From: Candidatus Saccharimonadota bacterium
GTDB taxonomy: Bacteria; Patescibacteriota; Microgenomatia; UBA1406; GWC2-37-13
Reading direction: 5' to 3'
Assembly: GCA_016432445.1 (NCBI GenBank)
Contig: CP066689.1
Location: forward strand, 750,001 to 782,000
Length of the DNA stretch: 32,000 bases
Part shown: in pieces, positions 7,926 through 12,742 of the stretch
Layout of the letters: each line of letters starts with the position of its first letter
Position numbering within the stretch: position 1 is the first letter of the stretch
The notes under the pieces: generated by a model
Told to the model about the DNA's origin: nothing
The model's database searches: none
Seen by the model: only the letters and a program-made list of their open reading frames with translations
Made by a program: the position numbers and the translations under genes

Positions 7926-9026
7926 TTAGGCAGCTTGCTTTAAGGGAACAAGTCTATATGCAGTCATATGTTCATAAACATTTAGATCTTTTTGAAATCT
8001 AGAAATGGTTTTCTTCGCTAAAAGATTTTTTTGTCTTGGAGAAAGTTCACTCACATGTCCAGCATTCTGAATTACTTCTTGAGCCATCTCTTTTGCTAGT
8101 TTCATAATTTTGGAAACACGGCGAGACGCTTCTTCGACAGTAAGTTTATTTCCTCCTTTATCTTCAAATCTTTCCCCATCATCATCAAAAGCCCCCACCA
8201 TCCAGCTTACATCAGTGTCGATATCATGTCTTACTGTTTTTGTAACTACAGCTTCAGACGCATCCCAGCCTGCAGTTTGCACCATATTAGCTATAATTCC
8301 GTCCGGAATTCGATTAGACATCACCACTAATGCTTCCGTTCGCGGTGTAACGATCTTTCTAAGTTCAGTTAACACTGCAGCATAGAGAACTAAACCGTAA
8401 TTATCCCAAGGCTCCTTGTATGGTTCATATAACTCTTCATTTGAATCATAAGCATGTGAATGTGAAAAACTATCGGCTAAAGAAATAACAGTAGATTTCG
8501 ATTGCGGCAAAAAAGACTGAAATCTGCCATCAAAAAGTTCTTTTCCCCCATCTGCAATTTCCTGCCTCCAAGCTTGGAGATAATGTACTCCATCATCACG
8601 ATCAATACTAATATAAATATCTTTCTTTTTTATACGCGAGGCGAGAAAAGGATCTTTCCTTATATTATATTCTGCTAAACTCATCTCTTCTTTACCTCTA
8701 CTCATCCGAATAAATTTCGAACGATCAACTTCACAACCCATGGCCGCACTAATATGGTGATCTGCCTTAAGATAATCTGCTCCATCTCCAGCTCCAACTA
8801 CAAGAAGAGGAAAACCTTTCGATCTGTTTCTATCTGTTAAATACCAACCTCTACTAACCATCGCATCAATCGCCGGAAAATAAACCTCTTTTCTTCCCTC
8901 AGCTTTTAACCTGTAGGATCTATCCTCAACAAAACCATCAACTGGCCTTTGAACTATCATTTGGCCTGAAGGTCGTAGATCACGTAGAGTTAGAAAACAG
9001 TTCGGTTTTTCAGCTGATACTGCCAT
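7926..9026 (-). CDS. Orphan protein with a possible class-I SAM-dependent transferase / spermidine-synthase-like core
   Basis: 366-aa ORF, convergent with the LOG-like gene. PLLVVGAGDGADYL...AMGCEVD resembles motif I (G.GDG) plus the beta-2 acidic residue. Later LVLYAAVLTELRKIVTPRTEALVV resembles the MTase post-motif. The functional call is weak. Confidence 0.35.
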   Translation of the reverse strand: MAVSAEKPNCFLTLRDLRPSGQMIVQRPVDGFVEDRSYRLKAEGRKEVYFPAIDAMVSRGWYLTDRNRSKGFPLLVVGAGDGADYLKADHHISAAMGCEVDRSKFIRMSRGKEEMSLAEYNIRKDPFLASRIKKKDIYISIDRDDGVHYLQAWRQEIADGGKELFDGRFQSFLPQSKSTVISLADSFSHSHAYDSNEELYEPYKEPWDNYGLVLYAAVLTELRKIVTPRTEALVVMSNRIPDGIIANMVQTAGWDASEAVVTKTVRHDIDTDVSWMVGAFDDDGERFEDKGGNKLTVEEASRRVSKIMKLAKEMAQEVIQNAGHVSELSPRQKNLLAKKTISRFQKDLNVYEHMTAYRLVPLKQAA

Positions 9027-9036
9027 AGTTTAAGTT

Positions 9037-9170
9037 AAAAAAAACCTCCTTAATTTGGGAGGGTAATGTAATTTAAGGTTTTTTAAACATTACCCCTATT
9101 TCCTAGTAAAAATAGGAATATAGTATAGTTTAAAAAATCTTTGAATTTTCATAGCCTCACAATTATAACA
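9037..9170 (-). promoter_or_regulatory. Extended -10 promoter plus structured 5' leader with terminator-like SD-sequestering hairpin for the 366-aa gene
   Basis: On the minus strand: TGTTATAAT (complement of 9162-9170). Hairpin CUAUAUUCCUA/UAGGAAAUAG (complement of ~9096-9122). 9-bp hairpin GGGUAAUGU/ACAUUACCC (9061-9069 / 9087-9095). Then CCUCC-CAAAUUAA-GGAGG (9062-9045) followed by U8 (9044-9037), 10 nt before the ATG. Confidence 0.4.
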
Positions 9171-9191
9171 CAATACGCATAAAAATACCTA

Positions 9192-9220
9192 TTGACTTTT
9201 ATTTCTTGATTCACTAGAAT
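9192..9220 (+). promoter_or_regulatory. Sigma70-type promoter P1
   Basis: TTGACT (9192-9197), 17 nt spacer, TAGAAT (9215-9220). Confidence 0.55.
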
Positions 9221-9226
9221 AAAATT

Positions 9227-9345
9227 GTTTTATGATAGTTAACATTTTTTCAGTTATTTTTACTCAACTCAAACCCTTTAAAAGGGCGGTTGATTGATGA
9301 TTGAAAAAGTGAAAGTCACCCGCCCAAGAAAGGGCGGTTTTTTTT
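9227..9345 (+). promoter_or_regulatory. Leader/sRNA module L1 (outer helix, ACCC...GGGCGG core, intrinsic terminator)
   Basis: Outer helix UUUUUCA (9246-52)/UGAAAAA (9302-08). Inner helix UCAAC (9264-68)/GUUGA (9289-93). ACCC at 9273-76 and GGGCGG at 9284-89. Terminator CCGCCC (9320-25)/GGGCGG (9332-37) plus U8 (9338-45). The internal GGGCGG can pair instead with the terminator 5' arm. Confidence 0.5.
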
Positions 9346-9466
9346 GCCTCTGTTTACGATAACAAGCGTAAGCGCAGTTGAGTATTACAGAGGCAAATCC
9401 TGCCGGAGCGAAGTTTCGACTGCGTGGATGTAAACCACGAGGCGAACCTGAGCGAAGGAGGATTTT
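9346..9466 (+). ncRNA. Unclassified ~120-nt two-hairpin structured RNA, copy A
   Basis: Hairpin 1 is GCCUCUGU (9346-53)/ACAGAGGC (9387-94) with conserved apical loop AAGCGUAAGCGCA. Hairpin 2 is AAAUCCU(G)CC (9395-9404)/GGAGGAUUU (9457-65). It encloses GAGCGAA//GAGCGAA internal loops and CGUGG-AUGUAAA-CCACG. Copy B (11079-11197) keeps both helices through compensatory changes. Confidence 0.55.
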
Positions 9467-9492
9467 GAGTTAATTATAAGTTTAAAAAATAT

Positions 9493-9684
9493 ATGGACCA
9501 GCTAAATAGTTTGGACATACCACATGTAGGCGCCGCTGAAAAGGCGGCAATTAGCAATTTTATTACCAAACACTTAAAAAGTGAAATAATACAGGATGTC
9601 ACTATAGAGATACACAAAGAAAAAAATAATCCTGATTCTTGCCAAAAAATCGATATTATTATCTTATTTAAAAATAACAATTGA
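9493..9684 (+). CDS. Doubtful small ORF (63 aa)
   Basis: ORF-track entry. No Shine-Dalgarno within 15 nt of the ATG. Its stop overlaps the -35 box of promoter P3. No family recognised. Confidence 0.25.
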   Translation: MDQLNSLDIPHVGAAEKAAISNFITKHLKSEIIQDVTIEIHKEKNNPDSCQKIDIIILFKNNN

Positions 9685-9709
9685 AATCTTTTTTCTTATC
9701 TGGTAGAAT
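9681..9709 (+). promoter_or_regulatory. Sigma70-type promoter P3
   Basis: TTGAAA (9681-9686), 17 nt spacer, TAGAAT (9704-9709). Confidence 0.55.
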
Positions 9710-9715
9710 TCAATA

Positions 9716-9831
9716 ATTCAAATGGAAAATAAAAATATTTTAGTCAGCCTTCCTCTTATTACCCTATATGGGGCGGGAAGTTGATTGACTAAAATATTTT
9801 TATCAATAACCCGCCGAAAGGCGGGCTTTTT
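9716..9831 (+). promoter_or_regulatory. Leader/sRNA module L3 (paralog of L1/L2)
   Basis: Outer helix AUUUUAGUCA (9737-46)/UGACUAAAAU (9786-95). Inner helix CUUCC (9749-53)/GGAAG (9776-80). ACCC at 9761-64 and GGGGCGGG at 9770-77. Terminator CCCGCC (9810-15)-GAAA-GGCGGG (9820-25) plus CUUUUU. Confidence 0.5.
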
Positions 9832-9838
9832 AGTATAT

Positions 9839-9915
9839 AGCACTTTTACAACACGAGCTAGATTGACCGGGAGAAATTAGGGGAGACAACCTCTCTTCTA
9901 TTCTCTCCTGGTCAA
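9839..9915 (+). promoter_or_regulatory. Conserved cassette 5' element, copy C (nested long hairpin)
   Basis: AGCACUUUUACAACACGAGCUAGA followed by hairpin UUGACCGGGAGA (9863-74)/UCUCCUGGUCAA (9904-15). The hairpin encloses GGGGAGA-CAACC-UCUCUUC. Nearly identical to 11246-11321, where the apical loop is replaced (CAACC vs UAAAA). Confidence 0.5.
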
Positions 9916-9954
9916 CAAGACAAGGGGAGAAATTTTAAAGGGAAGGAGGAAAAA

Positions 9955-10035
9955 ATGATGAACACTGTATCATTCACACCGCTGCAAGTCTATCAGATCA
10001 TGCGGGACGCCCGCAGAGCCATCGCGCGCAGATAA
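9955..10035 (+). CDS. Small ORF, 26 aa (MMNTVSFTPLQVYQIMRDARRAIARR)
   Basis: Found by hand; it is below the ORF-track size cutoff. Strong SD GGAAGGAGGA (9941-9950) lies 5 nt before ATG 9955. Visibly G+C-rich. No family recognised. Confidence 0.4.
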   Translation: MMNTVSFTPLQVYQIMRDARRAIARR

Positions 10036-10139
10036 CAATCTCGCGCAAACCCAATCGTACAGCGTAGTACAAAATGGGACAATGACGTCCACTCCAAACG
10101 ACAAATAAATCTAAAATAAGTAGGGAGGAAACAGTTTCT

Positions 10140-10694
10140 ATGATTACCACTTATCAGCATCTCGTCTGCGTCGCCGCCAAAGGTGATGTCCTAGCTGAAG
10201 AGATTCTCAAATACCTTAAAGGCAGTTTCAAGATCGCCGTAAGACTCATTGACCCGAACCATGAGAAAGCCGGACCGTTGGAAATAGTAATTTTCCAGCC
10301 AGAAGAAGGATGGCCGGGAAAAAATACTTTCACCTGCACGGCATTTTACCAGCTGGAAGAATCCACACCACAATGGGCAGCAGACAGCTTATTCCCTGTT
10401 GCCGTAAGGTTTCCCTTCGGCACTAACAAGATAAGGGAAAAACTATGGTACGCAACTGTTAACGTGGTTCGGCAAATAGAACTCTGGATCTGCAGTGATC
10501 GGCCGGTCGATACCACACCATGGGTAGGTTCACCAAAAGAACTCAGTGAAGACGTCAAAGGTAAAATCACAGTATGGCGCGCCCAGATAGACGGTATCAT
10601 GTCTCAAATCACAATCATGCCAATCCCTGACTTTCACCCTGTAAAGGAGCCAAAGTACAGTAGGAAAAGGAGCTTGGCCAGCTTAATCACCTAA
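10140..10694 (+). CDS. Orphan 184-aa protein with foreign-looking composition
   Basis: ORF-track entry with GGGAGGA 11 nt upstream. Many C/G-ending codons (gtc tgc gtc gcc gcc; cgc gcc cag) contrast with the A/T-ending codons of neighbouring genes. Trp-rich. No family recognised. Confidence 0.65.
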   Translation: MITTYQHLVCVAAKGDVLAEEILKYLKGSFKIAVRLIDPNHEKAGPLEIVIFQPEEGWPGKNTFTCTAFYQLEESTPQWAADSLFPVAVRFPFGTNKIREKLWYATVNVVRQIELWICSDRPVDTTPWVGSPKELSEDVKGKITVWRAQIDGIMSQITIMPIPDFHPVKEPKYSRKRSLASLIT

Positions 10695-10782
10695 AATTAA
10701 GACGGCAACGTCTCCTAAGGTCATTGACTAAAAGGCATCTCACGCATGATGCGTTTTTTGGTCTTTTGGCCTGCTAGCTCAA

Positions 10783-10848
10783 CAGTAGGGGATCAGCACC
10801 CAAATTACAGGTTTTACCTGTTTTTTGCCATGCTGATCCCCCCTACTT
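10783..10848 (+). terminator. Conserved cassette 3' element, copy E: terminator nested inside an 11-bp outer helix
   Basis: GGGGAUCAGCA (10788-98)/UGCUGAUCCCC (10831-41) encloses ACAGGU-UUU-ACCUGU plus U6 (10807-10826). Preceded by CUAGCUC (10774-80), the inverted match of GAGCUAG in element C. Confidence 0.55.
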
Positions 10849-10854
10849 TTTCAA

Positions 10855-10911
10855 GATTCAAGACTTGTGATTCGAAAATATTCATGAATCGTGAATCCTG
10901 AATCATGAATC
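10855..10911 (+). repeat. Low-complexity imperfect palindrome (GATTCA/TGAATC words)
   Basis: gattcaagacttgtgattcgaaaatattcatgaatcgtgaatcctgaatcatgaatc. The arms pair imperfectly. Same style as other intergenic hairpins in the window. Confidence 0.5.
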
Positions 10912-10915
10912 TCAG

Positions 10916-10944
10916 TTGACAAGAATCACCTGATTTGTTATATT
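10916..10944 (+). promoter_or_regulatory. Sigma70-type promoter P2
   Basis: TTGACA (10916-10921), 17 nt spacer, TATATT (10939-10944). Confidence 0.55.
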
Positions 10945-10950
10945 ACGTTT

Positions 10951-11076
10951 ATGGCAAATTTATCTACCTGGTATTGCTTTTTCTTTTTTACCCGCTTAGG
11001 CGGACTGGTAGATAATGAGATAAAACTCTAAGCCAATATTTCGAAAGAAACCAGCCGCCGCAAGGCGGTTTTTTTT
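10951..11076 (+). promoter_or_regulatory. Leader/sRNA module L2 (paralog of L1/L3)
   Basis: Outer helix UUAUCUACC (10960-68)/GGUAGAUAA (11007-15). U/C-rich tract. ACCC at 10990-93 and GGCGG at 10999-11003. Terminator CCGCC (11055-59)-GCAA-GGCGG (11064-68) plus U8. Confidence 0.5.
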
Positions 11077-11078
11077 AT

Positions 11079-11197
11079 GTGTCCGTTTACGGAAACAAGC
11101 GTAAGTGCAGTTTACGTATTACGGACACAAATCCTTCCGAAGCGAAGTTTCGACTGCGTGGATGTAAACCACGAGACGAACCTGAGCGAAGGAAGAT
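11079..11197 (+). ncRNA. Unclassified ~120-nt two-hairpin structured RNA, copy B
   Basis: GUGUCCGU (11079-86)/ACGGACAC (11121-28) replaces GCCUCUGU/ACAGAGGC of copy A, with every substituted position compensated (five of the eight pairs differ). Hairpin 2 closing helix CUUCC/GGAAG replaces CU(G)CC/GGAG. The core CGAAGUUUCGACUGCGUGGAUGUAAACCACGAG.CGAACCUGAGCGAAGGA is near-identical. Confidence 0.55.
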
Positions 11198-11231
11198 ATA
11201 TACGAATTATTTTCTTCACCCATAAGCATGG

Positions 11232-11259
11232 TTGACTGAAAATACAGCACTTTTACAAT
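11232..11259 (+). promoter_or_regulatory. Candidate promoter in front of cassette 2
   Basis: TTGACT (11232-37), 16 nt spacer, TACAAT (11254-59). The -10 lies inside the conserved element. The copy-C equivalent has TACAAC and no good -35. Confidence 0.4.
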
Positions 11260-11321
11260 ATGAGCTAGATTGACCAGGAGAAATTAGGGGAGATAAAATC
11301 TCTTCTACTCTCTCCTAGTCA
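11246..11321 (+). promoter_or_regulatory. Conserved cassette 5' element, copy D
   Basis: Aligns base-for-base with 9839-9915, with about 10 differences by eye over ~77 nt. Hairpin UUGACCAGGAGA (11270-81)/UCUCCUAGUCA (11311-21). Confidence 0.5.
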
Positions 11322-11441
11322 TGCCTCTTCTTGAGGGAATTAAATGGGAACGTACCCCAATATCGCATGTCGAAGAAATAGAACCCCAAGGTGAAATCGG
11401 ATTACCTCGTCACTGCGGCGTCTGGGGAAAATACTAACTCA

Positions 11442-11513
11442 AATCTAGCTCATTTCAAGGGGATCAGCTACCCAAATTACAGGTTTTACCTGTTTTTTAC
11501 CATGCTGATCCCC
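11442..11513 (+). terminator. Conserved cassette 3' element, copy F
   Basis: AAUCUAGCUCAU (11442-53) is the inverted repeat of AUGAGCUAGAUU (11260-71). GGGGAUCAGC (11459-68)/GCUGAUCCCC (11504-13) encloses ACAGGU-UUU-ACCUGU plus U-run (11479-11498). Confidence 0.55.
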
Positions 11514-11569
11514 TTAATACTTTTCTTTCAAAATTTTTGAGAAAGAAGTATCGCCAGTTATTAAAAAAA

Positions 11570-12742
11570 ATGGAAAAAAAATTACTTATATCTAAAGAAA
11601 CTCAACCATCGAAAACCATGGCCTATTTAGGACCAAACGGAACTTTTACAGAAATGGCTGCTGCCTTAGCTATGGATAAACTTGGAGGAGATATCCTTCC
11701 AATCCAAGCTAAAAACATTTCAGAGATCTTTAAAATGGTAGCTGATGGAACAACGGAACTAGGAATAGTACCGATTGAAAACTCTACGGATGGACCGGTT
11801 GGAGATACTTTAAAGAATCTCACCGATTTTGAGGGCACTTTTATTGGCGAAGTCGCCATTCCTATAAGTCATTCTCTATATTACCAGAGTGCCTGGCTAG
11901 TACAACACGTCGCCTCTAAAGATACTGCTTTAAGACAATGTCAAAAACATATCTCCAAATACCTCCCTGGACGCAATCTAATGAATGTCGATAGTACAGC
12001 CCTTGCTGTCCAAATGGCGGCTGCAGACCCAACCATAGCTGCTATTGGCAGCAAAATCGCCGCTGAAGCTCTTGGCCTTACTGAAAAATTTTGGCGAGTT
12101 GACGGAGTGGAGGATAATCCTTTAAATACGACTAGATTTGTAGTGATTTCCAAATCAAGAGAGGTGCACGAAGATCTGGAAAATAATAAAACTACTTTAC
12201 TTGTTCATATGAGAGATGAACCAGGAAGCTTAGCCAATTGTCTGCATGTTTTTTCCGAAAATAAAATTAATCTTACCCAAATTAAATCTTTTTTGAGAGA
12301 TGATCAGGGAGTCTCATTTCTTATATCAATTGATGGAGGAAACCATGAAGCTAGCGTTAAAAAAGCTTTTAATGATTTATATACTTACGCCAATTATCGA
12401 GTACTAGGATCATATGTAAAAGATGAAACAGAGTCTCAGGAAGATCAGGCAGATATCAATCAAATAGCCGACCAATTAAAAAGAGAGGCGGTAAATGGGA
12501 ATGGTATTGATCATGATGAAAGCGTTTTGGCTTTTACTCTTAAAGATGAAGTAGGCTCTTTGGAAAAAGTAGTCAGTATTTTTACCCAAAGGAAAATAAA
12601 TCTTACCCGTATCGATTCCATACCCACAGGAAGATTAAACGAATATGCATTCTATCTAGCTTTTAAAAACGGCATCCCCAACCATCAGGAACTGCTTGAT
12701 GAAGTAAAACTAGCCTGTAAAGAAATTGTGCAGATTGCTTAA
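11570..12742 (+). CDS. pheA: Prephenate dehydratase with two C-terminal ACT domains
   Basis: MAYLGPNGTFTEMAA, ...NTTRFVVI, and ACT-like TTLLVHMRDEPGSLANCLHVFSENKINLTQIKS. A second ACT-like segment is VLAFTLKDEVGSLEKVVSIFTQRKINLTRIDSIP. The start is uncertain: TTG 11537 in the track, ATG 11570, or ATG 11618 at MAYLG. Confidence 0.85.
   Translation: MEKKLLISKETQPSKTMAYLGPNGTFTEMAAALAMDKLGGDILPIQAKNISEIFKMVADGTTELGIVPIENSTDGPVGDTLKNLTDFEGTFIGEVAIPISHSLYYQSAWLVQHVASKDTALRQCQKHISKYLPGRNLMNVDSTALAVQMAAADPTIAAIGSKIAAEALGLTEKFWRVDGVEDNPLNTTRFVVISKSREVHEDLENNKTTLLVHMRDEPGSLANCLHVFSENKINLTQIKSFLRDDQGVSFLISIDGGNHEASVKKAFNDLYTYANYRVLGSYVKDETESQEDQADINQIADQLKREAVNGNGIDHDESVLAFTLKDEVGSLEKVVSIFTQRKINLTRIDSIPTGRLNEYAFYLAFKNGIPNHQELLDEVKLACKEIVQIA

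Follow-up and report, generated by a model that had tools for sequence, protein, structure and literature searches.

The pheL/pheA attenuator of Escherichia coli combines a phenylalanine-rich leader peptide that ends in FFFTF-x-stop, a 1:2 hairpin with the stop codon in its loop, a word in region 2 (UGGGAGG) that repeats the 3' arm of the terminator, and a CCUCC-type terminator ahead of the regulated gene, which encodes prephenate dehydratase. A second Phe-rich peptide of E. coli, pheM, is encoded in the order thrS-infC-rpmI-rplT-pheM-pheS-pheT. The enterobacterial leu and ilv operons have Leu and Ile/Leu/Val leader peptides and are classical examples of multivalent attenuation, and T-box leaders are likewise terminator/antiterminator attenuators that sense amino-acid supply via tRNA charging. 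To our knowledge, very few regulatory RNAs are known from organisms of the candidate phyla radiation (CPR), which have minimal amino-acid biosynthesis; a search of the full-text literature returned no paper that linked leader peptides and attenuation to the candidate phyla radiation or to Patescibacteria, and nothing specific was found on attenuation or structured RNAs in CPR bacteria. Here we analyse a 32,000-nucleotide stretch of a CPR genome (Candidatus Saccharimonadota bacterium, GenBank assembly GCA_016432445.1, contig CP066689.1, positions 750,001 to 782,000 of the forward strand; hereafter the window), in which three promoter-leader-terminator modules, named M1, M2 and M3 in order of position, precede a gene for prephenate dehydratase (pheA). 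The last of them, M3, is very probably a Phe leader-peptide attenuator, the closest described analogue of which is the E. coli pheL/pheA system, and we consider it probable, with a little less assurance, that all three modules are ribosome-mediated (leader-peptide) transcription attenuators. On this reading they represent a known mechanism, here in a CPR bacterium, and not a new riboswitch or small RNA class. A preliminary description of this DNA had suggested a candidate new class that responds to a ligand, a protein or an RNA, or else small RNAs that stand alone, and its account lacked the short open reading frame (ORF) present in each module; that proposal is set aside because each module encodes a leader peptide with hydrophobic codons that overlap region 1 and homologues of M3 lie upstream of pheA.

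All three modules are on the plus strand of a gene-poor interval of 2.5 kb (9030-11570), which is flanked by a divergent minus-strand ORF of 366 amino acids (7926-9026) and by pheA. In a scan of positions 8900-11700, with shuffled sequences as the control, the promoters of M1 (TTGACT-17-TAGAAT, 9192-9220, 10/12 matches), M2 (TTGAAA-17-TAGAAT with an extended TG, 9681-9709, 10/12 matches) and M3 (TTGACA-17-TATATT, also with an extended TG, 10916-10944, 11/12 matches and the best of the region) gave the top three sigma-70-like scores on the plus strand, and the interval held 13 sigma-70-like sites against 6.1 +/- 2.4 in the shuffles. On the minus strand of the same interval no convergent promoter matched these in quality. 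Among 17 terminator-like sites, against 3.1 +/- 2.1 in the shuffles, the three strongest are the intrinsic terminators of the modules (regions 3:4), CCGCCC-AAGAAA-GGGCGG-T8 for M1 (9320-9345), CCCGCC-GAAA-GGCGGG-CT5 for M2 (9810-9831) and CCGCC-GCAA-GGCGG-T8 for M3 (11055-11077). The promoters and terminators on which the preliminary description was built are therefore the top three of each kind in the scan. The RNAs that these signals bound are predicted to be ~115-130 nt long, each with a long hairpin followed by the terminator, and their minimum free energy (MFE) folds, with z-scores of -4.45 (M1), -5.62 (M2) and -2.24 (M3), reproduce the outer and inner helices that had been named before. 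The long hairpin formed by regions 1 and 2 spans 9243-9311 in M1, where it is the anti-antiterminator, 9729-9803 in M2, where it contains an 18-nt perfect inverted repeat, and 10960-11015 in M3. The ACCC and G-rich words are placed as previously described, and the G-word of region 2 (GGGCGG at 9284-9289 in M1, GGGGCGGG at 9770-9777 in M2 and GGCGG at 10999-11003 in M3) is in every module a copy of the 3' arm of its own terminator.

This combination was also sought with a composite scanner, in which a promoter, an ATG within 15 nt, an ORF of 12-40 codons, a repeated terminator 3'-arm word and a terminator had to occur together; the settings were relaxed, since a stricter version missed M1 and M2, and the shuffle control was applied to the relaxed version. 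The composite signature occurred nine times in 300 kb (the window and related loci) against 0.1 per shuffled set, which is more than chance would give. Within the 32-kb window it picked out exactly M1, M2 and M3, the other six occurrences being in relatives, and it was absent (0 occurrences) from ~240 kb of other contigs that had been recovered via element A, a repeat described below.

What shows as a U/C-rich tract in each module corresponds to the hydrophobic codons of a short ORF, which begins approximately at the transcription start. The leader ORF of M1 (9232-9297, plus strand, 21 codons) encodes MIVNIFSVIFTQLKPFKRAVD, that of M2 (9722-9784, plus strand, 20 codons) encodes MENKNILVSLPLITLYGAGS and that of M3, the Phe leader (10951-11031, plus strand, 26 codons), encodes MANLSTWYCFFFFTRLGGLVDNEIKL; these peptides, and those below, are written up to the stop codon. 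Their ATG codons lie 11, 12 and 6 nt past the -10 box, respectively, none is preceded by a Shine-Dalgarno sequence (SD), and the M3 mRNA would be effectively leaderless. The codon cluster of M3 reads W-Y-C-F-F-F-F, and its Phe codons are clear. M2 has 4 Leu, 2 Ile and 1 Val in 10 residues, with no homopolymeric run; M1 has a mixture of Ile, Phe and Val, also with no run, in a pattern that is only partly conserved in L138, an orthologous contig from another sample.

The presumed target of M3, pheA (11570-12742, plus strand, annotated start ATG 11570), encodes a prephenate dehydratase with two ACT domains and without a chorismate mutase domain. Its product is 100% identical to NCBI HYW86_04045 of a Candidatus Roizmanbacteria metagenome-assembled genome, and the nearest other homologues show 34-45% identity. 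We examined the contigs of seven pheA homologues from uncultured relatives, one of which (L094) has too little upstream DNA to judge. The same design stands directly upstream of pheA in 6/6 of the judgeable relatives (L005, L006, L007, L089, L090 and L092; pheA identity 34-43%), namely a TTGACA-17-TAnnnT promoter with an ATG 7-13 nt behind it, an ORF rich in Phe codons, a G-word that duplicates the 3' arm of the terminator, and the terminator itself; in L089 only the -10 box (TAGAAT) and not the -35 element was confirmed. Each of the six leader peptides, MKQYKNVTIFSFFFTFA (L005), MENRQELAFGFFFTFA (L006), MQNQRENFNFFFTFV (L007), MKQFNKLTIFSFFFTFA (L089), MNIIHRNYFYFTFTSQTGRFLLS (L090) and MKQYTNVTIFSFYFPFA (L092), contains 4-5 Phe residues. 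The gap between terminator and pheA is 15-60 nt in these relatives, apart from L090, where ~270 nt are filled by a called ORF of 87 amino acids. In four of them (L005, L089, L090 and L092) the gene order is (thrS-)infC-rpmI-rplT-leader-pheA, followed in L089 and L090 by pheS-pheT. In the window, pheA adjoins neither pheST nor rplT and is followed by an ABC-2 transporter gene; the scan of 8900-11700 found no good promoter directly upstream of it, so that M3 is likely to be the pheA promoter. No other aromatic amino-acid biosynthesis gene occurs in the 32-kb window, and its pheA is a lone gene in this respect. A search of a genome collection with the window pheA alone retrieved no relative, and one with an alignment of the two-ACT-domain pheA clade retrieved 80 loci that were ordinary pheA genes of Planctomycetota, Proteobacteria and others, the patterns being too general and left unused.

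The three closest leaders of the relatives differ from each other in the way that coding sequences typically do. Among L005, L089 and L092 the differences at first, second and third codon positions are 1, 1, 7; 2, 3, 7; and 3, 4, 8, that is mostly third position, and they include an exchange of the Ser codons TCG/TCA with AGT and of the stop codons TAA and TAG. The third-position bias together with the Ser TCN-AGY swaps suggests selection on the peptide and not on an aptamer. There are also echoes of the Phe leaders in the peptides of the other two modules, IFSVIFT of M1 resembling IFSFFFT of L005 and MENKN... of M2 resembling MENRQ... of L006.

In comparison with E. coli pheL, the relatives' leaders are similarly Phe-rich and end similarly (...IFSFFFTFA before the stop), and the pheL DNA (...TTTACCTTCCCCTGAATGGGAGG...GGCCTCCCAAATCGGGGGGCCTTTTTT) closely matches theirs (...TTTACCTTCGCTTAAGCGGAGG...) in layout. 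As in pheL, the leaders here have their stop codon within the 1:2 hairpin loop, their region 2 (GCGGAGG in the relatives) is a copy of the 3' arm of the terminator, and a CCUCC-type terminator comes next, before a prephenate dehydratase gene. However, pheL has an SD (AAGGAAACAAACATG), whereas the leaders described here have none and place their ATG 6-13 nt from the -10 box; the ORF of M3 passes through region 2 and reaches its stop 26 nt later; the words of M3 are GGCGG/CCGCC; and the window pheA, with its two ACT domains and no chorismate mutase domain, belongs to a CPR bacterium and not to a proteobacterium. With pheM the relatives share a Phe-rich peptide and a position after rplT, but they have pheA between the leader and pheS, and the window pheA is away from both pheST and rplT. 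Unlike T-box leaders, the window modules have no specifier, T-box sequence or Rfam T-box match, and sensing would use the ribosome and not direct tRNA binding.

A search of the whole window against Rfam in gathering mode gave no match. In E-value mode, Phe_leader (RF01859) is the best Rfam match of M2 (29.0 bits) and M1 (26.3 bits) and also matches M3 (18.3 bits), all below the gathering threshold of 55, and among the relatives it reaches 42.0 bits (E=7e-4) in L090 and 28.3 bits in L006, again below that threshold. Assignment by Rfam to a known family, which the preliminary description had named as an outcome that would refute it, is thus seen in a weak form only. The Rfam Leu, Thr and His leader models gave no match at E<=10 for M2 and for the Leu and Ile leaders of L007 described below. 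No riboswitch family was matched by the window modules at E<=10, and their homologues share only the peptide and regions 1-4; a riboswitch was rejected as a candidate, no aptamer-like core being conserved among the homologues.

The architecture, the ORFs, their conservation, the coding-type substitutions and the competing pairings are observed features of these sequences, from which we infer ORF translation, ribosome stalling, amino-acid specificity and the identity of the controlled genes. In the mechanism that we propose, transcription would start 6-12 nt before the ATG to give a leaderless or nearly leaderless mRNA, and the 20-26-codon ORF would be translated while transcription of the leader is ongoing. 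The hydrophobic codons (Phe in M3; Leu, Ile and Val in M2; Ile, Phe and Val in M1) would occupy the 5' strand of the long hairpin (region 1). When charged cognate tRNA is scarce, the ribosome would stall on region 1, region 2 would pair with region 3, and no terminator would form, so that the polymerase could read through; when the supply is ample, the ribosome would cover region 2 on its way to the stop, or the 1:2 hairpin would re-form behind it, and the 3:4 terminator would end transcription.

The duplex energies of the three window modules are -8.4 to -12.1 kcal/mol for 1:2, -14.3 to -16.8 kcal/mol for 2:3 and -12.0 to -14.1 kcal/mol for 3:4, with 2:3 against 3:4 being -16.5 and -14.1 in M1, -14.3 and -14.1 in M2, and -16.8 and -12.0 in M3. 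The mutually exclusive antiterminator and terminator previously proposed, in which the G-word pairs with the terminator 5' arm, are thus upheld by these energies. Taking the window modules together with relatives, 12 leaders were modelled, and in 12/12 the terminator (3:4, -11.3 to -15.6 kcal/mol) does not exceed the antiterminator (2:3, -12.3 to -19.6 kcal/mol) in stability. The G-word and the terminator arms co-vary over three word types, the window having GGCGG and the relatives CGGAGG and GGGAGG, and the mean 2:3 energy is -16.4 kcal/mol for cognate pairs vs -10.1 kcal/mol for cross-type pairs (p=1.6e-7). The claim of covarying helices needs to be restated in this light, since the three window copies taken alone are unalignable but covariation does appear after homologues and orthologues are added.

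In a model of the stalled ribosome, each leader was folded up to the end of the terminator stem with a footprint of -15 to +13 around the A-site codon masked and with the terminators defined explicitly. With the A site on the hydrophobic codons, the probability of the terminator is <=0.23, and ~0 in most leaders, and it becomes 0.97-1.00 once the footprint covers the G-word in region 2; this holds for 12/12 leaders. The positions of low terminator probability are I5-Q12 in M1, L10-L12 in M2 and N3-F11 in M3. In silico only, the fold would therefore depend on where the ribosome is, a stall favouring the antiterminator and passage beyond the codons favouring the terminator.

For M1 and M2 the comparison rests on two further loci. 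L138 was recovered via a 70%-identical homologue of ORF63 (HYW86_04035, 9493-9684, plus strand), the small gene downstream of M1 and of the first copy of element A (A1), and this homologue is the single orthologue of ORF63. The L138 orthologue of M1, MSNINFSFIRIQLKPYFRAVD, has the same length, frame and stop as in the window, with TTGACA-17-TAGTAT at the equivalent promoter position, and 9/21 residues differ, including V8F, F10R and T11I within the putative sensor window. Its orthologue of M2, MENKNILVSLLLTTLYRAGS (LVSLLLTTL), has three consecutive Leu codons, and here too length, frame and stop are kept and the promoter is identical. Every helix of M1 and M2 is preserved between the window and L138; the M1 hairpin has 2 compensatory changes and 0 broken pairs, and other substitutions fall in loops. 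The second locus, L007:5715-7260 (GCA_943356485.1), has three further modules directly after pheA, of mixed, Leu-rich and Ile-rich type, which share the architecture. The Leu-rich leader is MIKTLKLNFNLLLSLLTQSLLLGDNVREVFLD, with the stretch LLLSLLTQSLLL, and the Ile-rich leader is MLTKTIQIIGIIITSRRGGLFR, with IQIIGIIIT, indicating that the leader family diversifies to other amino acids. Each of these extra modules precedes a small gene (184, 128 and 120 amino acids) without a Pfam domain; the 184-amino-acid protein has an IIDGHHR motif, which we take to be reminiscent of ParB/sulfiredoxin-like domains.

M2 (ILVSLPLITL, and LVSLLLTTL in L138) and the Leu and Ile leaders of L007 resemble Leu, Ile or mixed branched-chain sensors such as those of the leu and ilv operons, unlike which the genes that follow them encode small proteins of no assigned function and are not biosynthetic operons. 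We take M2 to be most plausibly of a Leu or branched-chain type and M1 of an Ile/Phe/Val type, and both are probable diverged paralogues of M3 ahead of small genes. The 3' halves of the modules act like cassettes: between M1 and M3 there is 84% identity over a stretch that begins ~35 nt ahead of the T-run and includes repeat A, and modules b and c of L007 share an identical ~90 nt, which run from region 2 as far as the start codon of the gene downstream, behind unrelated peptide-coding halves. The M2 terminator of L138 is a chimera of an M2 5' arm and an M3-type 3' flank, followed by A and a second repeat, B, and looks like the product of recombination between M2 and M3 terminators that deleted or inserted everything between. 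The order in L138:1-923 is M1, a shortened A, ORF63, M2, A and B, which corresponds to window positions 9100-9920 plus 11060-11290; the window has in addition, between the M2 terminator and A, a copy of B (B1), ORF26, ORF184, a copy of a third repeat (C1) and M3. Three traits of the modules are unusual, namely near-leaderless ORFs without an SD, arrays of paralogues with differing codons before orphan genes, and shuffled terminator halves.

Several observations count against reading the modules as leader-peptide attenuators. With no SD before any of the three ORFs, initiation would have to be leaderless or from a ~5-nt 5' untranslated region (UTR), which is not known to occur in this phylum. 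M1 and M2 have no clean runs of a single codon type, and the genes after them (ORF63, ORF26 and ORF184) have no link to amino-acid metabolism. BLAST among the three window modules found no similarity except at the terminators, the copies being too diverged to align, so that their common descent is deduced from architecture and not from sequence. Between the M3 terminator and pheA there are ~490 nt that hold A2, B2, a 38-codon ORF and C2, with its weak terminator-like hairpin, and read-through from M3 to pheA, or control of it, in this genome is presumed and not certain. Finally, several leaders, when free, take up a nested 1:4 + 2:3 fold as their equilibrium MFE structure, which means that the model relies on co-transcriptional order, and the footprint model is itself a simplification.

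Some of these features would suit attenuators made of RNA only, responding to a ligand, a protein or another RNA, or stand-alone ~115-nt small RNAs acting in trans, in which the ORFs are incidental. The folds have z-scores as low as -5.6 and are stable, the strong promoters and terminators would give discrete small RNAs, the ORFs lack an SD, no Rfam family is matched at threshold, and the CU-rich tract of M2 is complementary to an SD at 9940-9949. We nevertheless find such an explanation improbable, because the homologues keep the ORF, its frame, its Phe codons and the stop position while changing at third positions and by Ser TCN-AGY exchange; they conserve no sequence core outside regions 1-4; the version with Phe codons is tied to pheA in seven genomes; and in 12/12 leaders the model places the switch at the codon cluster. 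As for the tract CCUUCCUC, regarded earlier as a possible anti-SD seed, it is a Leu-Pro-Leu codon stretch, and its complementarity to the SD is trivial for any CU-rich tract and expected from composition alone. A type I toxin-antitoxin system is likewise not indicated, as the peptides have 20-26 residues with hydrophobic stretches of <= ~11 residues, where a membrane-spanning helix would need ~18 or more, and the minus strand of 8900-11700 offers no comparable convergent promoter for an antisense RNA.

The lack of homopolymeric codon runs in M1 and M2, and the small ORFs of no assigned function that they would control, would also follow if only M3 worked and the other two were decaying or re-purposed duplicates without amino-acid sensing, be it as constitutive terminator-bearing leaders, as genes for small hydrophobic peptides or as by-products of terminator-cassette recombination. 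The change of 9/21 M1 residues in L138, with V8F, F10R and T11I in the sensor window, and the shuffled 3' halves (M1/M3 at 84%, L007 b/c and the L138 M2 chimera) fit that account as well. Against it, promoter, ORF length, frame and stop, helices and 2:3 pairing are intact in both the window and L138, with changes confined to loops or compensated; the M2 peptide of L138 has gained an LLL run; L007 has clear Leu and Ile leaders; and mixed Ile/Leu/Val leaders work in the ilv operons of E. coli. On balance we regard it as unlikely. Least of all do we expect that the modules, the repeats A, B and C and ORF26-ORF184 make up an island that is mobile or recombining and that the modules serve this element, for example as insulation or as entry points for A. 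It is true that A, B and C each occur twice and in the same order, that related genomes differ in whether a given site has A (after M2, A in L138 and B in the window), that ORF26 and ORF184 have 47-53% GC vs 35.6% for the window, and that A is multi-copy and dispersed in either orientation over many metagenomic contigs. Yet no transposase, integrase, terminal inverted repeats or target duplication was found, the neighbouring genes are chromosomal housekeeping genes, and six relatives without A, B or C have the Phe leader directly upstream of pheA, so that the attenuator is older than the repeats and independent of them.

Read as leader-peptide attenuators, the modules become a testable annotation, with three leader peptides, predicted stall codons and predicted 3' ends at ~9345, 9831 and 11077. 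A Phe sensor at a lone prephenate dehydratase gene, and Leu/Ile-type sensors at orphan genes, would be handles on nutrient sensing in CPR cells, and the SD-less leader ORFs at or near the 5' end of the transcripts predict leaderless translation in this lineage. A broader idea, which we put forward tentatively and think rather less likely to be right than wrong, is that CPR bacteria, with their reduced genomes, carry local arrays of leaderless leader-peptide attenuators for different amino acids (Phe, Leu and Ile in L007; Phe, Leu-like and Ile/Phe-like in the window and L138) that control, pheA aside, small lineage-specific genes instead of biosynthetic operons, with element A perhaps being a new, widespread class of structured RNA that acts on the read-through transcripts. 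If this were true, the attenuator arrays would be amino-acid-starvation switches for a novel response in an organism that imports most of its amino acids.

Element A follows directly on two of the terminators, as A1 (9346-9465, plus strand) after M1 and A2 (11079-11199, plus strand) after M3, and there are four compensatory changes between these copies. Exact matches to its core, TTTCGACTGCGTGG-N7-CCACGAG, number 35 in metagenome contigs, and the loci considered were the window copies, L095-L129, and L138:268-355 and 717-838. In the alignment a variable, covarying hairpin comes first, the irregular hairpin behind it is conserved and has tandem G.A pairs, and a U-A/C-G pair in the loop covaries. 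Paired cells make up 96.6% of the core and 9 pairs show double changes, values that 0/500 shuffles reach. The covariance model also found second, diverged copies on several contigs, and of the L138 copies one has four compensatory changes in the otherwise "invariant" core, the other being the shortened copy after M1. There was no Rfam match to element A in the window or in 19 other loci. Comparison by ARAGORN, Rfam and manual consensus did not support a fragment of transfer-messenger RNA (tmRNA) or tRNA, 5S rRNA, signal recognition particle RNA, domain V of a group II intron, a hammerhead or other small ribozyme, or a k-turn. On the aligned sequences, element A is a well-supported candidate for a structured element that is widespread, covaries and has no entry in Rfam. 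Its neighbours are diverse housekeeping genes, and its settings include smpB-tmRNA, a tRNA cluster and, ahead of argG, a leader that resembles a T-box; its orientation with respect to the neighbouring genes is mixed, and its functional strand is ambiguous. In the argG case (L101:1560-1800, minus strand, the same as the L129 region) a T-box-like sequence, AAUUAAGGUGGCACCGUG, and a terminator are followed by element A and then by argG, the Rfam T-box model scoring 25 bits against a gathering threshold of 93; L101/L129 is the third case of A between an attenuator-type leader and a gene.

Repeat B occurs as B1 (9835-9916, plus strand), directly after the M2 terminator and with a ~25-bp purine/pyrimidine hairpin, and as B2 (11242-11323, plus strand), 89% identical to B1; pairing would also be possible between the pyrimidine 3' arm of the hairpin, UCUCUUCUAUUCUCUCC, and the purine-rich SD region at 9921-9949. 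Repeat C occurs as C1 (10787-10841, plus strand), which ends the ORF184 unit and has a 10-bp GC stem (GGGGATCAGC/GCTGATCCCC), and as C2 (11458-11513, plus strand), 96% identical to C1 and 55 nt before pheA; the stem encloses the weak terminator-like hairpin ACAGGT-TTT-ACCTGT-T6. No relatives of B or C were found in the collections searched, and viral contigs gave no match to A or C and six matches to a 17-mer of B, which is chance level.

The segment 9900-10760, downstream of M2, contains ORF26 (9955-10035, plus strand, MMNTVSFTPLQVYQIMRDARRAIARR), of 26 codons, and the orphan ORF184 (HYW86_04040, 10140-10694, plus strand), both with a strong GGAGG SD, in contrast to pheA and the leader ORFs; its GC content is 47-53% against 35.6% for the window, and the segment may have been acquired from elsewhere. 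ORF184 has no match in Pfam, NCBIfam, PHROG or PDB, and in an index of 5.8 billion proteins only itself was found. HMMER against 1.8 billion representatives gave one full-length relative at 32% identity, and residues ~37-98 have weak matches to Big_9/cadherin repeats in giant proteins. The similarity of ORF184 to the 184-amino-acid protein of L007 is not significant, its AlphaFold2 model is unusable (predicted local distance difference test score, pLDDT, 31), and the Logan contigs that carry it are identical to the window and end inside repeat A. At the other edge of the gene-poor interval, the 5' UTR of the minus-strand 366-amino-acid ORF contains at 9037-9064 a terminator-like sequence, CCTCCC-AAATTAA-GGAGG-T8, the 3' arm of which is the gene's own SD, and this hairpin could be an SD-sequestering hairpin or a leader terminator.

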